The notes beneath the pieces are model-generated. The model ran no database searches and had not been told where the DNA came from. It worked only from the letters and a program-made list of their open reading frames with translations. From positions 1 to 64,000 of IMG/VR virus record IMGVR_UViG_3300035698_004130: a stretch of DNA of 64,000 bases. One strand, 5' to 3'. Source of the stretch: a virus. How positions within the stretch are numbered: position 1 is the stretch's first letter; the number at the start of each line of letters is the position of its first letter. Below are positions 3,798-25,463 of the stretch, one piece after another. The position numbers and the translations under genes are program-made.

Positions 3798-3976
3798 ACC
3801 ACCAGCGCATCAAAGACCTCATTACCAAGCTAGAGAGCAGCGGCATCTGCAAGGAAGGTAGAGATACCATTGCCAGCATCCTAGTGGAATAAACATACCT
3901 TCGTCCAAGCGAAGTAAAACTAGGTGTTAGGCTTGGAGCGTCCAAAAGGAAATTCTTAACTTTTGGGGTCACATTT

Positions 3977-4951: not shown

Positions 4952-5207
4952 TATGTTAATCACAGTAGAAACTACGGAACCAATGTTTGATCTAACTCTC
5001 TCCCTTAGTATTGGGGAAGCTGAAGCCCTTCGAACCATGGTTGTCCAGTATAGTGATGGATAGCAGTCTGTTTGGGAAAGTGCTGTTCACAATATTCCTT
5101 GTTGTGGTATCAGTGTGGCTCTATTGGGAAATGGAGTTTGATAAGTAGTTTTGTTGGTTGTAGTTTACCTTTTCTGCATAATATTACTCATTTTCCTATA
5201 TTTCGAG

Positions 5208-5235
5208 TTGAAAAAGTGGATTACTAAGCTATAAT
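5208..5235 (+). promoter_or_regulatory. sigma70-like promoter for main tRNA/ncRNA cluster
   Basis: TTGAAA-16 nt-TATAAT upstream of tRNA-Met. Confidence 0.6.
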
Positions 5236-5253
5236 CACTACATAACTGAACAA

Positions 5254-5331
5254 AGCGAGATGGTGTAGGTTGGCCTAGCACGTCGGTCTCATAAGCCGAA
5301 GCCACAGGTTCGAATCCTGTTCACGCTACCA
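5254..5331 (+). tRNA. tRNA-Met(CAT), initiator-like anticodon arm
   Basis: TCGGT-CTCATAA-GCCGA, T arm ACAGG TTCGAAT CCTGT, CCA. Confidence 0.88.
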
Positions 5332-5416
5332 TCAGAAATCACAGTTAGTCGTGTGGGCCTTTAAAAGAAGGTATTCGCTGGGATGATGACCCCTTGACAA
5401 TTCAATTTTTTACAAC

Positions 5417-5519
5417 GCTAACCTATTGGTGCTTTTTCAACATCGCGCTAGTAATAGTGTGTAGAGCCTTGAGGTTGGTTAAACACTTGCCAATATAGAC
5501 TCCACATCAATAGGTTAGC
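5417..5519 (+). ncRNA. putative structured ncRNA
   Basis: GCTAACCTATTGGTG pairs with CATCAATAGGTTAGC; internal GTAA-tetraloop hairpin. Confidence 0.5.
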
Positions 5520-21178: not shown

Positions 21179-22181
21179 TCAACAATTCCTCCTTAACACC
21201 TAGCATCTCCCTAATTATAGCCGTATCCTTGTTGGAGAAATCTAACAAAACCTCAGTAAAATCATCTTTTTTGAACTTAGTGTCCCCAATAGACAACCTA
21301 CCTGAATCCGACTTGGTGATGTAGCCATCTTCAACTAACATTGGAGCAAGTCCGTAATAAGGATCCAATCCCTTATCAAACAATACTCGGAACTCACATT
21401 CTTGGAAGGGTAGTCCAACCTTGTTCTTCTTGGCTCTGATCTTTCCCACGATACCCATAGGCTTCTTGTTAGCGTCCTTAATAACGTCGCTGGTCTTATT
21501 AGAGACCGTCTTGAGATCTACCGACAGATAAAATTCTAGAGCCCTTCCGCCGCTTGCTGTGGTGTTCGGGTCACCATACATCACGCCAATCTTGGTCCTA
21601 ATCTGGTTGATAACCACAATCGTGGCCTTATTCTTCTTCAGGTCGTGATTGATCTTTCTAAGAAGACTACCAAATACAATAGCTCTACGAGCACCATCTG
21701 TTGGGGAGATGTCTCCAATATTATCTCTATTCATTTCCTCTCGTGTTGGCAGGACAGATACGGAATCAATCACCTGGATAATAGGGGTCTCTTTGTCTAG
21801 CTCCCGAATGTCCTCGATGGTCTTCTTGATGCTCTCAAAGGCATCCTCAAGGCACCGGGAGTTGGTGTAGAGTAGAGTGTCTGGGTTGATGCCTAACTTG
21901 CGACCGAACTCTCGGGAGTAAGTATTTTCTGTGTCATCCAGCTTGGCATAACAACCTGCGTGCTGTGCAGCTTGTAGTATAGTGGTTGCAAACAGTGTCT
22001 TACCTGTTGAACTGTCTCCTTGCAATTGAACTATTCCACCGATAGGAAGGCCAGCGGCATAGTCTCCTGAGATGATTCTGTTGAGAGCGTGACACCCTGT
22101 GGAAATGAATTTCCAGTCTTCTAACTGATCTAGAGTAAGGTTTTTATTGCCTTTCAACTTGTCTAATACGTCTTGGTTCAT
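21171..22181 (-). CDS. uvsX: UvsX/RecA-like recombinase
   Basis: GDSSTGKT Walker A, VIDSVS, INQIR.KIGVMYGDP.TT.SGGRAL.FY, KNKV. Confidence 0.93.
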   Translation of the reverse strand: MNQDVLDKLKGNKNLTLDQLEDWKFISTGCHALNRIISGDYAAGLPIGGIVQLQGDSSTGKTLFATTILQAAQHAGCYAKLDDTENTYSREFGRKLGINPDTLLYTNSRCLEDAFESIKKTIEDIRELDKETPIIQVIDSVSVLPTREEMNRDNIGDISPTDGARRAIVFGSLLRKINHDLKKNKATIVVINQIRTKIGVMYGDPNTTASGGRALEFYLSVDLKTVSNKTSDVIKDANKKPMGIVGKIRAKKNKVGLPFQECEFRVLFDKGLDPYYGLAPMLVEDGYITKSDSGRLSIGDTKFKKDDFTEVLLDFSNKDTAIIREMLGVKEELLNG

Positions 22182-22203
22182 ACCCAGGTATTATAGTCGA
22201 TAC

Positions 22204-22240
22204 AAAAAAACAGAGTAAGCTTTTTAGGGCTTACTCTGTT
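22204..22240 (-). terminator. intrinsic terminator closing the ROT-TerD/ncRNA transcript
   Basis: minus strand AACAGAGTAAGC-loop-GCTTACTCTGTT followed by T run. Confidence 0.85.
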
Positions 22241-22281
22241 AGGTTTGAGCGGTAAGACTCAGACAGCTTTAGACTGTAAAT

Positions 22282-22398
22282 AAGGGAAATTGTAACCAGA
22301 TGATTTTTATTGGTAAGCCTCGGGGGAATTGAACCCCAACGTGTTCTGGCCTGGATACCAAGGCTTGGGTGTTAGAAGGAACTGGTTTCATGGCCCTT
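22282..22398 (-). ncRNA. Y-RNA-like unit 4 with CCA-ended tRNA minihelix
   Basis: AAGGGCCATGAAACCAGTTCCTTCTA...TCTGGTTACAATTTCCCTT enclosing AAGCCTTG..GGGGTTCAATTCCCC CGAGGCTT ACCA. Confidence 0.75.
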
Positions 22399-22403
22399 GA
22401 ATA

Positions 22404-22607
22404 TTAGTTCAACCAAGCATTTATTCTACGGTTTAGAATTGTAAGATACTCTTTCATAACCCCTAGTTGGGTTGTTAGGTTGTTTTGTTCTGTCTCTAGT
22501 AGGCTCAAAAAAACTCCATTAGTTGGATTGATAAAAGCCTCTAGGTTAGCGACCTTTAAAGCAAGGTCTGCTCGTTCATCGGCAACTCGTCGTTGATAAG
22601 GTAACAT
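22404..22607 (-). CDS. small coiled-coil phage protein (crAss001_48-like)
   Basis: YQRRVADERADL..K..NLEAFI...QL.VM..Y..IL.RRI pattern. Confidence 0.7.
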   Translation of the reverse strand: MLPYQRRVADERADLALKVANLEAFINPTNGVFLSLLETEQNNLTTQLGVMKEYLTILNRRINAWLN

Positions 22608-22617
22608 GGGAAAAATG

Positions 22618-22683
22618 TATCCCTCGCTTTCTGACAGTGAAAAAAATGAACCAAGGTTGGTTCGTCAGCGATAGCGAGGGATA
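22618..22683 (-). ncRNA. structured RNA element inside the ncRNA array
   Basis: TATCCCTCGCT/AGCGAGGGATA, CTGAC/GTCAG, GAACCAA/TTGGTTC. Confidence 0.55.
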
Positions 22684-22715
22684 GAAGATCTTAAAAGCTA
22701 AGATCGATGTAAGTT

Positions 22716-22857
22716 GAGGAGATTATAGTAGGTAGTTTTAAGGTCAGATGCTCTACCGCTGAGCTACAAGCAACACTGTTAGTTGGTTGCGAGGCAGGAA
22801 TTGAACCTGCGACCGTCTGATTTTTATTTAATAGAAGGAACCTACTTCTATGGCCTC
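22716..22857 (-). ncRNA. Y-RNA-like unit 3, YrlA-type circularly permuted tRNA mimic
   Basis: T arm (GCAGG TTCAATT CCTGC) precedes a loop-closed acceptor stem, then D arm (TAGCTCAGCGGTAGAGC); TCAGA/TCTGA joins the conserved basal stem. Confidence 0.85.
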
Positions 22858-22867
22858 GTTATGAGGT

Positions 22868-22947
22868 GAGGAGATTGGCATCAGTGTGTTGTCAAATCCA
22901 TATTTTGGTGCCCAAAGGGCGTAGAAGTAACTGATTGCCATAGCCTC
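22868..22947 (-). ncRNA. Y-RNA-like unit 2
   Basis: GAGGCTATGGCAATCAGTTACTTCTA...ACTGATGCCAATCTCCTC. Confidence 0.78.
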
Positions 22948-22958
22948 GTAATAAGGTA

Positions 22959-23026
22959 GCGGAGATTTCTAGGTCTAAGTTTTTAATAATTGTTAAAGTT
23001 TTAGAAGGAAGACCTAGAATGGCCGC
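22959..23026 (-). ncRNA. Y-RNA-like unit 1 (minimal)
   Basis: GCGGCCATTCTAGGTCTTCCTTCTA...AGACCTAGAAATCTCCGC. Confidence 0.78.
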
Positions 23027-23032
23027 AGTATT

Positions 23033-25135
23033 TTAAGCGAGATATTCCGAAAGGATCTCAGTTGTATCCGATGGCTTGATACCTTCTGTCAGAGAGAAGA
23101 TGGTATCAGCCTCCAGAGGATCCTCAACATACTCCGTCCCCCGCACATTAGCGTGCATTACGAATAGATCGTAGAGGGTAGGTTTGTTGTCAAGGTTCAC
23201 TGAGCCTCGCACAATATCTAGTGTCGTCGCACGATTTGTGATCGTGTTATTTGGTATACGTCTGTTGGAGTTTCTAAAGATGTCTGTGCCACCCTCAAGA
23301 TCCATCCAGATTGCTTGTCGTGCTTGCATGTCAAAGATAACAGGAACAGCCCTTGAACTACCTTGGGTTAGATTAACCTTTTGGTCAACATACTTAGCGT
23401 TATACTTGTCACTTGAATCAGGCATGTCTCGGGTCATCCAACCTGCGTAGCAGATTTCGTGATCCTTAAAGCTAGGTCCACAATACACATATACTTGCAT
23501 TGCAACATATCTGTATCCGGCCTTCAAAGCCTTAGTCATATCAATGTCAATGAACTCTGCTGCACCATCAGGAGCATTCGTAATATCACCGGAGTGACAA
23601 GAGATTGTGCCATCCCTCAAGTTTGTGTAAGCAACGTCGGACTTGTGGTTAAACTCAGCATCCAAGAAGGAAGCACTAAGATCGATATCTCTGCCCTTCC
23701 AGTAGATGAACAGGCGTAGGGTATTCTTGTCCGTTAGGTTGAATCTGGTGCCTCTTGCGACAGTCTCTAGGCTTTCCGATGCGCTTCTCAGAGAGAGAGG
23801 GATCGGACAACCTTCAAGATCGTTACTCAAGAATACCTTTCCAAGGGACTCCAGCTTAGAGAACCTATTTTGCAGGGAGGCTTGGATCGTATCCATAACC
23901 TTATCTACAATGGAAGGATTCAAAGTTGGAAGCTTTGTCTTTAAGAGGATTGCCTTAGCAGCACTACCCTTCGGGAATACAAGTCTTTCAGCAGGTCCAG
24001 TTGCACGAGTTCTAAAGTGCCCGAACAGTTGCATCAATACTCTCGTATCAATTTCATCTGCTACAGAGGCAAAGTTCTCTAGGATACCCTTACCAATACG
24101 CACATTAGACTTCCGTAGAAGGTTATCCAACTTTCTTGCGAACACTCCAGGTCTCTTCTTTAGAAGAGTAGAAGCTTCACCATAGTTGCCGGAGGTAATA
24201 AATCTTTCAACATTCGCCTCGTAGGAGAGATGCTTGTAGTCCTTACTGCGTAGTCGAGAAACAATTGCATTTAGGTTCTTTGCGTAAGCGTATTCACCTG
24301 TATGCAAAGAGTGTGCTAAACGAATCCACTTACCCCGATGGCGGAAGATATCGTCATCTCGTGCTATCACGTTTAGACGGTAAACAACTGCCTTTCTGAA
24401 CTTACGACCGAAGCTCTTAAACTTAGTGTTAGTTGCAAGGGAAATATCTCCACCGGATAGATGGGTGCAAACTCTTAGAACATCGGTTGCAGTCTTTAGT
24501 GCAGCCATGCCCAGGGAAGGACGGTCACTATCCAAACACTCTCCAACGAAGAATGCCATGTTCTCTTTGAACGGGATTGCGGGAGGGAGAACCTGCATTA
24601 GCTGGTTGTCCTCGTAGTTGTTAAAGAGATAGGTTAGAACCTTCTTGTCATAGTCGGTGATCGAAGCATTAGATGCTAGGATTTGACTAAGGGTAAGCAG
24701 CACATCTTCTTCTTTCCCTAGACCGATTTCTCGGAACTTAGAGTTTTCGAATTGTGGTGCTTGCATGTTACCTTGATGGTAATCGGGTTGCCAAGCTCCA
24801 CCCGACCAATAGTGCATCAAAGCATTACCGTAAAGCCTCATCGCTCCCATTTCCATCACTTGGGATGGGAAACCGGGATACATTGGAGTGTAGGTAACAT
24901 CTGCACCTACAACTTTCTTGAGGTTCGTCAGGGTTTGACGAAACACAGTGTTGAAGCGATTTTCCGTTAAAGTTGTCAACTGCTCCATTGCCTCAGGTGA
25001 GAGGATAAAGCCCAATGACATCACTTCCGCTTGGAGAACCATACCTCTTTGATCGAAGGCTTGGCGTCTGGTTCCTTGACCGGATGGAAGCAACAGGAGC
25101 CGCTTCTTATTAAGTAGTATTGATTGCTTGTTCAT
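23033..25135 (-). CDS. ROT/TROVE-like helical repeats plus C-terminal TerD-like domain (RING-less relative of the Prok-RING_4 architecture)
   Basis: PMYPGFPSQV, KTATDVLR, RPGVFARKLD; TerD-like DIDLSA..HSGDITNAPDGAAEFIDID; start 25135 follows a TATAAT box. Confidence 0.75.
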   Translation of the reverse strand: MNKQSILLNKKRLLLLPSGQGTRRQAFDQRGMVLQAEVMSLGFILSPEAMEQLTTLTENRFNTVFRQTLTNLKKVVGADVTYTPMYPGFPSQVMEMGAMRLYGNALMHYWSGGAWQPDYHQGNMQAPQFENSKFREIGLGKEEDVLLTLSQILASNASITDYDKKVLTYLFNNYEDNQLMQVLPPAIPFKENMAFFVGECLDSDRPSLGMAALKTATDVLRVCTHLSGGDISLATNTKFKSFGRKFRKAVVYRLNVIARDDDIFRHRGKWIRLAHSLHTGEYAYAKNLNAIVSRLRSKDYKHLSYEANVERFITSGNYGEASTLLKKRPGVFARKLDNLLRKSNVRIGKGILENFASVADEIDTRVLMQLFGHFRTRATGPAERLVFPKGSAAKAILLKTKLPTLNPSIVDKVMDTIQASLQNRFSKLESLGKVFLSNDLEGCPIPLSLRSASESLETVARGTRFNLTDKNTLRLFIYWKGRDIDLSASFLDAEFNHKSDVAYTNLRDGTISCHSGDITNAPDGAAEFIDIDMTKALKAGYRYVAMQVYVYCGPSFKDHEICYAGWMTRDMPDSSDKYNAKYVDQKVNLTQGSSRAVPVIFDMQARQAIWMDLEGGTDIFRNSNRRIPNNTITNRATTLDIVRGSVNLDNKPTLYDLFVMHANVRGTEYVEDPLEADTIFSLTEGIKPSDTTEILSEYLA

Positions 25136-25190
25136 CTGTATTTCGTCCTCGTGAGCTACCATTATAGCTAAGGTAGCCCGAATCTGAACG

Positions 25191-25463
25191 CTAATCTTCC
25201 GAGATTTCGTCGTTTTCTTCTGCCTCAATATCCTGCACTCGCGTATAAAGAGCCATAGCTTTCACAGATAGGTGAATGAACTGTTCCAAAGTGGCTGATA
25301 ACTGATGTGCAAACTCTCCTTGAGTATACCCATCCCTTCCTTCATCCTCAATTTGGGTATTACTTTCAATAGCATCAGCGATTACGAGTTGCGTGTGCGC
25401 GGTTTGAAGGCAATCCACGATTGCACCATACATTTCAGAATTACTTTTCATTTTAGTTACCAT
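25191..25463 (-). CDS. hypothetical protein
   Basis: ORF track. Confidence 0.55.
   Translation of the reverse strand: MVTKMKSNSEMYGAIVDCLQTAHTQLVIADAIESNTQIEDEGRDGYTQGEFAHQLSATLEQFIHLSVKAMALYTRVQDIEAEENDEISED

Follow-up and report, generated by a model that had tools for sequence, protein, structure and literature searches.

What does a viral RNA unit do beside the gene of a large viral protein when it carries the acceptor end of a tRNA, complete with an encoded CCA, and no anticodon? The question is raised by an array of four non-coding RNA units on the minus strand of the IMG/VR virus record IMGVR_UViG_3300035698_004130, of which positions 1 to 64,000 (64,000 nt, hereafter the window) were analyzed. 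Units 1-3 lie directly downstream of the gene of a 709-amino-acid (aa) protein, and unit 4 lies 635 nt downstream of the same gene on the same strand. The units share a common scaffold into which a cargo is inserted, and the cargo of unit 4 is a minus-strand minihelix of 56 nt (22366-22311) that corresponds to the top half of a tRNA, with an acceptor stem, a T arm and an encoded CCA. The minihelix is real and beyond chance, and it is a conserved tRNA top half mounted in a protein-associated scaffold. We read unit 4 as a putative tRNA top-half mimic, which would represent a new form of Y-RNA-like tRNA mimicry.

A conserved tRNA top half in unit 4

The anatomy of the minihelix follows that of a tRNA in several respects. 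First, the acceptor stem consists of eight pairs, one of them G-U, and the T stem of four, and the 3′ strand accordingly presents 12 contiguous paired bases (8 + 4) followed by N-CCA. In tRNA, the acceptor and T stems likewise add up to 7 + 5 = 12 pairs; we take the spacing along the 3′ strand of the minihelix to be that of tRNA positions 61-76 and its TTCRANN pattern to be the T-loop consensus. The stack of the acceptor stem on the T arm, the TTCRANN loop, the 12 pairs and the 3′ NCCA of tRNA are all found here. A canonical cloverleaf is not formed, only 21 nt being available between the acceptor and T stems, and under a tRNA-like constraint no stable fold is predicted within these 21 nt. Next, CCA is encoded in 14 of the 15 tRNA calls of the phage, and 10 of those 14 end in ACCA, so the minihelix follows the phage's own tRNA-gene grammar. 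It is located 12 kb from the tRNA cluster and on the opposite strand. Finally, the sequence features of pre-tRNA-like RNase P substrates are present in unit 4, namely a T arm on which an acceptor stem of 7 bp or more is stacked, a 5′ leader that is single-stranded, and RCCA at the 3′ side. The first-pass annotation of this DNA had described an acceptor stem, a T arm and a CCA, with about 20 nt replacing the D and anticodon arms, inside an array scaffold, and this anatomy is confirmed in all its parts.

The minihelix is also the best-conserved segment of the array. It was compared with its counterpart in a 119,660-bp Tara Oceans contig (L146), which was obtained from a DNA-pattern scan of metagenome contigs and runs collinear with the window over the full length of the array. 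Of the 56 minihelix bases, 55 are kept (98.2%), against 56-93% identity for all other segments (Table 1). The other non-coding columns contain 108 differences in 593 (81.8% identical, with gap columns counted singly), and the binomial probability of at most one difference in 56 against that background is 1.7e-4. The sole change is an A to G in the T loop, by which the purine is kept. The 21-nt linker and the ACCA are unchanged and the bases flanking the minihelix on both sides are rewritten, while the scaffold stem of unit 4 stays paired via a two-sided change (TG...CA to TAG...CTA in L146). A coding reading of the overlapping 40-aa open reading frame (ORF; 22269-22391) was rejected, as its ATG is changed to ATA in L146; the constraint thus acts on the RNA. 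A lack of conservation in related phages, which the first-pass annotation had named as evidence that would speak against the minihelix, is the reverse of what this near relative displays. In the other searches, exact and near-exact queries with the minihelix returned no copy from viral contigs or genome contigs, megablast of the 5-kb region against cultured phages gave no match, and a single-protein scan of viral contigs gave no close relative.

Random sequence is not expected to yield such an element often. A scanner that requires a T hairpin, a closing stem of 7-8 bp at most 30 nt upstream and NCCA has a chance expectation of 0.015 elements per 64-kb window on both strands, as estimated from 200 first-order Markov windows. 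In the 102,677-bp genome it finds one such element outside the tRNA genes, besides a scanner artefact inside tRNA-Pro, and it picks out the minihelix together with the real tRNAs. The established models do not call it: none of the 15 tRNA calls by ARAGORN and none of the 14 Rfam matches at gathering thresholds lies at the minihelix, and RF00005 (tRNA) gives no match there even at E <= 10. The only Rfam alignment of the minihelix at E up to 10 is with mascRNA-menRNA, at 18.9 bits (cut-off 42.5) and E 0.6, and an E-value scan of 22150-23100 with YrlA (RF02553) matched unit 3 only and not unit 4.

Several other identities of the element were considered and rejected. Chance or a terminator hairpin is ruled out by the expectation of 0.015 and by the separate terminator that follows unit 4 (Table 1). 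The 3′ end of a tmRNA is ruled out by the local perfect closing stem and by ARAGORN -m, which finds no tmRNA in the genome. A sigma-70 promoter over the ACCA (TTACCA-16-TACAAT) was likewise dismissed, with two promoter-like sites against 1.6 expected and a spacer of 13 nt in L146.

The encoded ACCA and the tRNA-gene grammar of the phage, together with the rarity of the form and the interleaving of arrays elsewhere with real and odd tRNA genes, might also suggest a decaying tRNA gene reduced by an internal deletion, or an att-type copy of a tRNA 3′ end, which landed in a scaffold unit and has no role of its own. Such an origin appears improbable. The minihelix is the most conserved segment of the array, and no parent tRNA is evident in the window, the best match being 19/27 at the 3′ end. 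An att copy needs no matching 5′ strand, which is present here, and the record, 87% complete, yielded no match to the tyrosine integrase family (PF00589); on these two grounds an att site was rejected.

The scaffold array and its protein

Unit 4 carries all parts of the scaffold family, which can be written as GGYNA - stem - TTCCTTCTA - cargo - stem′ - 3-5 nt - CC. In the general plan of a unit, a basal GG/CC stem with a C(C/T)A bulge leads into a stem of 9-10 bp and the motif TTCCTTCTA, after which come the cargo, the return strand, ATYT and CC. The corresponding order in unit 4 is AAGGG / CCA / TGAAACCAG / TTCCTTCTA ... CTGGTTACA / ATTT / CCCTT, as in units 1-3. Four copies of the motif occur in the window, as in the whole 102,677-bp genome, and the scaffold starts define exactly four units. 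From the acceptor ends of the minihelix, the chain continues into single strands of 6-9 nt and 8-11 nt that lead to the paired scaffold strands. Because the acceptor ends pass via these short linkers into a paired scaffold, the layout of unit 4 resembles that of a pre-tRNA with mutually paired leader and trailer.

Units 3 and 4 are separated by a terminator-like hairpin and a 67-aa ORF (ORF67). In both the window phage and L146, unit 4 starts 5 nt past the stop codon of ORF67 and precedes a terminator, after which a promoter-like TATAAT and then a RecA-family gene are found in the window. This placement would suit a processing signal, whereby an RNase P cut at the 5′ side of the minihelix forms the 3′ end of the ORF67 mRNA and/or separates members of the array, with the minihelix as a by-product. 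The best, though non-significant, Rfam resemblance, that to mascRNA-menRNA, points in the same direction, and the tRNA-like elements of MALAT1 and MEN-beta offer a precedent among long non-coding RNAs (10.1101/312249). However, a processing signal would need neither a fully conserved 21-nt linker nor a place inside a protein-associated scaffold, no such signal is found between units 1-3, and the terminator already ends the transcript. We therefore consider a mere processing role quite unlikely.

The protein encoded upstream of the array has 757 homologues at E <= 0.001, of which the closest is 94% identical (P0001) and the next are 50-56% identical (P0002-P0009). No Pfam family was found in the window protein (0 matches), no match to TROVE or TerD was obtained among 26 of its relatives at E <= 1, and no PDB sequence matches it below E 0.17. 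A protein atlas holds the sequence from residue 23 onward, and the nearest clusters there carry the automatic name 'TerD family protein'. The scaffold accompanies the gene of this protein in most of the loci sampled: the TTCCTTCTA motif with a GGYNA start lies near it in 65 of 80 viral and 67 of 80 genome loci, and 255 scaffold motifs were counted at protein-encoding loci as opposed to 4 in shuffles.

Table 1 Coordinates of the array features in the window and their identity with the Tara Oceans relative L146.
Feature	Position	Strand	Remarks	Identity with L146
Gene of the 709-aa protein (731 aa if counted from a TTG upstream, at 25228)	23033..25162	-	phrog_33734, E 1.4e-72	
Units 2 and 1	22868..23026	-	same array; unit 2 stem with two compensatory pair changes relative to L146	
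Unit 1				92.6%
Unit 2	22868..22947	-		83.8%
Unit 3, permuted YrlA-like tRNA mimic	22716..22857	-	Rfam YrlA 31.8 bits (cut-off 69), E 8.2e-5	84.5%
Spacer (array)				82.8%
ORF67, crAss001_48-like, between units 3 and 4	22404..22607	-	Pfam PF21825, E 1.4e-15	91.7% (DNA)
Unit 4, whole unit, 117 nt	22282..22398	-	scaffold common to units 1-3; orthologous unit in L146	
Unit 4, 5′ scaffold and linker				80.6%
Scaffold motif TTCCTTCTA of unit 4	22373..22381	-	one copy per unit	
5′ linker ACACCC, leader-like	22367..22372	-	TAATAACCC in L146, final ACCC retained	
Acceptor-stem 5′ strand AAGCCTTG	22359..22366	-	8 pairs with 22322-22315; identical in L146	
21-nt linker in place of D and anticodon arms	22338..22358	-	0/21 changes relative to L146	
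T arm GGGG (22337-22334) / TTCAATT (22333-22327) / CCCC (22326-22323)	22323..22337	-	T-loop pattern TTCRANN matched	
Acceptor-stem 3′ strand CGAGGCTT	22315..22322	-	contiguous with T-stem 3′ strand; 12 stacked pairs	
Discriminator A and encoded CCA (ACCA)	22311..22314	-	kept in L146, next 11 nt diverged	
3′ linker ATAAAAATCAT, A/U-rich, trailer-like	22300..22310	-	TCAAATTA in L146	
Unit 4, 3′ linker and scaffold				62.1%
Spacer following unit 4				56.1%
Intrinsic-terminator-like hairpin ending the ORF67 and unit 4 transcript	22209..22240	-	12-pair stem, T run; kept with changes in L146	

Some details of the other units are recorded here in their own right. In unit 2, a cargo hairpin GCCC-TTT-GGGC is directly followed by ACCA, and L146 keeps both the hairpin, with the loop TTA, and the ACCA, which may be a coincidence. 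In unit 3 of the window, a CCA directly follows the acceptor 3′ strand; L146 has none at this place, and here, too, coincidence is possible. The acceptor-like hairpin of unit 3 is remodeled between the two phages (L146 positions 975-1105): in the window its stem is weakly paired and its loop is 13 nt longer, whereas the counterpart in L146 is a clean CTTGC-ACCC-GCAAG. Unit 3 is followed by the terminator-like hairpin (GAACCA-ACCT-TGGTTC and a T run; 22618-22683, minus strand), which is nested in a longer, 14-bp inverted repeat, TATCCCTCGCT.../...AGCGAGGGATA, and both the hairpin and the repeat are kept in L146. Elsewhere in the window, a match to the Pistol ribozyme (53.5 bits, cut-off 34.5) is located at 3899-3973 on the plus strand and ends 3 nt before tRNA-Arg(tct).

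Cargos of the scaffold family

The range of cargos was surveyed at 80 viral and 80 genome loci with a gene of the protein, in further stretches of viral and genome contigs with the scaffold motif and a T loop (56, 78 and at least 120), and in 74 metagenome stretches matched with a pattern that also requires NCCA. A unit scanner recovered 324 units, 265 of them distinct, from 155 of 488 sources; since it misses units with bulged stems, such as unit 2 of the window and several units of the locus L001, all class counts are lower bounds. The majority of the distinct units (222 of 265) have no T arm, while 21 are permuted and one is ambiguous. A T hairpin without a recognized acceptor is found in 16, which include unit 3 of the window, other imperfect permuted forms and four cargos that consist of a bare T-arm hairpin (30-54 nt; L047, L059, L005 and L080). 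Five units were called non-permuted, two of them falsely (L223 and L356), and the true ones are those of the window, its orthologue L146 and a third locus, L184. The cargos accordingly comprise none, a T hairpin, a minihelix, a permuted tRNA body and a full anticodon-less tRNA. In two of the loci with bare T hairpins (L047 and L005), GTGGAT occurs a few bases past the hairpin.

The proposal of the first-pass annotation that unit 4 adds a second, non-permuted form of tRNA mimicry to the permuted unit 3 is in keeping with the YrlA alignment of the latter (Table 1), and L184 shows that the combination is not confined to the window and its relative. L184 (PJEL010000538.1) is a metagenome contig with an AT-rich stretch of 2.7 kb without long ORFs, in which at least eight scaffold units are found, among them a bare T-hairpin unit and a YrlA-like unit (31.3 bits). 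Another of its units holds a non-permuted tRNA cargo of 68 nt that is matched by the Rfam tRNA model (48 bits, E 1.5e-8) and is not called by ARAGORN; GUAA replaces the anticodon loop, and T-CCA follows the acceptor stem. This cargo resembles that of unit 4 in its scaffold, its position therein, its non-permuted order, the missing anticodon loop, the NCCA end and the YrlA-like unit in the same array. It differs in having a full D arm and a GUAA-capped anticodon stem, and its sequence is unrelated to that of the window minihelix. Judged from its sequence, L184 is an independent instance of a non-permuted, CCA-ended cargo, albeit one found via a pattern that contains CCA.

Several tRNA-like elements were observed near scaffold arrays without being part of a unit. 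At L040, a free-standing anticodon-less element lies beside the array at +67 to +138 after the protein gene; it has an acceptor stem, a D arm, a 3-bp stem with a 5-nt loop in the place of the anticodon arm, a T arm and G-CCA, and is not called by ARAGORN. A comparable free-standing element at L001 (+267 to +352) has a CGAAA-capped stem, lacks the CCA and is likewise not called. At L064, an element of 55 nt (+770 to +824 after the protein gene) consists of a closing stem with 6 of 7 pairs, a 20-nt linker, a 5-bp T arm and ACCA. As its stem has a mismatch and it lies outside any scaffold, it was not counted as a second minihelix. A GGGGC... start lies about 120 nt upstream, and the element may be the terminal part of a small tmRNA-like RNA. 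The otherwise unrelated contigs of L040 (+1534 to +1617) and L102 (about 345-430) share a tRNA-like element with GTAATTGGA(T/G)CTGTAAATG before the T arm and a stem-loop with the loop CTTCTAA. The scaffold motif TTCCTTCTA(A) also includes the heptamer CTTCTAA, which resembles an anticodon loop of the UCU type.

A cultivable phage with such an array is available as well. In the Rhodococcus phage Weasels2 (L489, NC_041887.1), an unannotated gap of 388 nt after gp266 (5038-5425) contains an array of four units with the variant motif TTACTTC..., one of them a permuted YrlA-like unit (26.4 bits, E 0.0015), and gp266 is 30% identical to the window protein. The array lacks a minihelix, and this phage and its host could serve for work on the scaffold family alone.

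Known tRNA-like RNAs and the fate of the minihelix

Of the known systems, YrlA, and in particular that of Mycobacterium smegmatis, is the one that unit 4 probably resembles most in the way it works, yet unit 4 is not a YrlA member. Both are non-coding RNAs in which a protein-binding stem module is combined with a tRNA-derived module that has a canonical T arm, and YrlA, like the units of the window, is found in a small array beside the gene of its partner protein. As described in PMC4201824, the tRNA-like module of the M. smegmatis YrlA is cut by RNase P and CCA-ended, and the pieces remain bound to the protein. In contrast to unit 4, however, YrlA is circularly permuted, is joined via the anticodon-stem position and has a D arm and an acceptor stem closed by a loop. 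Unit 4 is non-permuted, with the 5′ acceptor strand upstream of the T arm, open acceptor ends, neither a D nor an anticodon arm and an encoded CCA, and it has no match to the covariance model. The scaffold motif TTCCTTCTA also differs from the YrlA/Ro60 stem. YrlA is encoded beside, and bound by, a Ro60/TROVE protein; for the 709-aa protein of the window, the presumed partner here, no TROVE match was obtained.

Eukaryotic mascRNA differs from the minihelix in that it has retained D- and anticodon-like stems and acquires its CCA once it has been cleaved. Nevertheless, mascRNA/MEN-beta (RF01684) is similar to the minihelix in its length of about 56-61 nt, its acceptor stem and T arm and the absence of a working anticodon, and no other Rfam model aligns to the minihelix end to end. 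Given the score and E-value reported above, this is a resemblance and not a membership, and the nuclear location of mascRNA sets it further apart from a phage RNA. Its embedding in a longer transcript, from which it is released by tRNA-end enzymes (10.1101/312249), is a further point of likeness. The species 1 and 2 RNAs of phage T4 (rnaC and rnaD) are phage-encoded stable RNAs whose ends are still those of a tRNA: according to the T4 record, rnaC terminates with a CCGGG-TTCGAAT-CCCGG T arm and rnaD with ...CACCA. The T4-type RNAs are free-standing genes of 119-139 nt with large bodies, located in tRNA clusters, whereas the minihelix is 56 nt long, 12 kb off the tRNA cluster and nested in a protein-associated scaffold. 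It can loosely be placed with the non-decoding tRNA-like stable RNAs of phages. Finally, synthetic acceptor/T-arm minihelices are model substrates of RNase P, the CCA-adding enzyme and some synthetases, and they consist of the same parts as the minihelix of unit 4, that is, a 12-pair acceptor/T stack, a 7-nt T loop and a 3′ NCCA. In the synthetic molecules the two helices are joined directly, while in the natural one a conserved 21-nt linker interrupts the 5′ strand. A prior description of such an element was not found in the literature on phage tRNA-like minihelices with CCA and on T4 species 1 RNA, to which the search was confined; the phage YrlA lists of PMC4201824 could hold open-acceptor forms.

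The explanation toward which we lean, tentatively and somewhat short of calling it probable, is that unit 4 is a functional member of a Y-RNA-like array and that its minihelix is cut out or opened and serves as a look-alike of a tRNA end. Host RNase P would cut between C22367 and A22366, and the A/U-rich trailer would be trimmed from the 3′ side up to the encoded CCA, where trimming would halt. The 56-nt CCA-ended minihelix would thereby be released, or at least opened, leaving a nicked scaffold of two pieces that could still hold the protein of the array. Owing to the non-permuted topology of unit 4, the RNase P cut would free the minihelix and not merely open a loop. The product would be unable to decode; a factor that recognizes the CCA end and the acceptor/T-arm half might find in it a bait, a decoy or a handle. 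Excision by RNase P with 3′ trimming is plausible by analogy with the M. smegmatis YrlA, for which PMC4201824 reports RNase P cleavage and CCA tailing: the 7-bp acceptor stem is a major determinant of cleavage, RNase P RNA cuts at the predicted site in vitro, and in vivo two halves are found, one of them CCA-tailed, which both co-precipitate with Rsr. Neither the CCA-adding-enzyme family (PF01743) nor the RtcB family was found in the 87%-complete record. The first-pass annotation had also suggested that the minihelix could be aminoacylatable, which is not borne out. AlaRS needs G3:U70 on minihelices; here the third acceptor pair is G-C, and no other identity element is readable.

Several results weigh against this explanation. 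The non-permuted form is rare, being represented by the window with L146 and by L184 among 265 distinct units, and the CCA of L184 and L146 is not independent evidence, because the pattern by which they were found demanded it. Across the family, NCCA follows 8 of 178 stems as opposed to about 2.5 (2-3) at control offsets, with 3 of the 8 ascertained with CCA, and it opens the acceptor loop in one of 21 permuted units, most such loops being tight tetraloops; family-wide use of NCCA by scaffold cargos is unsupported by these counts. Most YrlA RNAs have a closed acceptor stem that is left uncleaved, according to bioRxiv 10.1101/312249. The T stem has only four pairs, and covariation in the acceptor or T stems is absent from the comparison, which comprises one near relative and a single substitution. 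The folding z-score is -1.07 for the 56-mer and -1.69 for unit 4, with 28 and 14 of 200 shuffles, respectively, folding as well. The tRNA-like fold has -14.5 kcal/mol, compared with -16.9 kcal/mol for the minimum free energy structure, and RNAalifold on the window and L146 prefers two hairpins side by side.

The last results might be taken to mean that there is no mimicry at all, i.e. that two adjacent hairpins (GCCTTGG-TAT-CCAGGC and an extended G/C hairpin) are formed and the likeness to a T arm, the closing stem and the CCA are coincidental. Neither the RNAalifold consensus nor the minimum free energy structure gives a tRNA-like fold, and the lack of covariation fits as well. The folding energy model, however, leaves the tertiary structure of T loops unscored, and the fold predictions are for this reason not decisive for the minihelix. 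The T-loop motif, the perfect 8-pair closure and the NCCA are jointly expected by chance only 0.015 times per window, and unit 3 and L184 show that tRNA parts are truly carried by this RNA family, which renders a coincidence very improbable.

A more serious alternative to excision, along the lines proposed for YrlA, is that the minihelix is never cut out and acts as a tethered effector, displaying its T loop or elbow and its helical stack to a tRNA-binding partner. The ACCA would then either be left over from an ancestral phage tRNA gene or assist in docking to the partner. Most cargos with a T arm are indeed closed and permuted like YrlA (the 21 permuted units and most of the 16 unclassified ones), NCCA is not enriched across the scaffold family, and some cargos are a bare T hairpin, which makes the T arm, and not the CCA end, the common denominator of the cargos. 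The 21-nt linker is as strongly conserved as the helices, which suggests a specific bound surface, and most YrlA RNAs are thought to remain uncleaved (10.1101/312249). On the other hand, the scaffold of unit 4 is joined through the acceptor ends and not at the position of the anticodon stem, so the geometry presented to the protein would be entirely unlike that of YrlA. The ACCA is retained in L146 amid diverging adjacent bases, too. tRNA end-processing enzymes measure a 12-pair stack plus NCCA, and the minihelix has both. Cleavage in vivo of a YrlA with a 7-bp stem (PMC4201824) also argues for cutting. A permanently tethered minihelix is possible, but on balance it appears somewhat less likely than excision.

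The array of the window carries its mimic in two topologies side by side. To our knowledge, tRNA mimicry by Y-like RNAs is known solely in the permuted, closed form of YrlA. The minihelix retains only those parts that are read by tRNA-end enzymes, namely the 12-pair stack, the T loop and the CCA, which narrows the question of function to factors that recognize the acceptor/T-arm half. Both the minihelix (56 nt) and the unit (117 nt) are easily synthesized, and the prediction is an RNase P cut at one phosphodiester bond. A further, speculative and rather doubtful proposal is that the scaffold is a delivery cassette, from which RNase P and 3′ trimming would release the minihelix during infection as a sacrificial substrate of those host immunity enzymes by which tRNAs are disabled at the CCA end or acceptor stem. 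The candidates would be pyrophosphokinases of the toxSAS/CapRel type (10.1101/2024.07.05.602228 and 10.1101/2021.04.30.441581) and nucleotidyltransferase toxins of the MenT type. If true, the phage would counter host defence by means of an RNA, and unit 4 would be the first of the Y-RNA-like units with a cargo meant to leave its scaffold. More generally, should the minihelix be set free and act on tRNA-end enzymes of the host, it would represent a novel type of RNA effector in phages; should it stay tethered, the scaffold family would present tRNA parts in more than one geometry.

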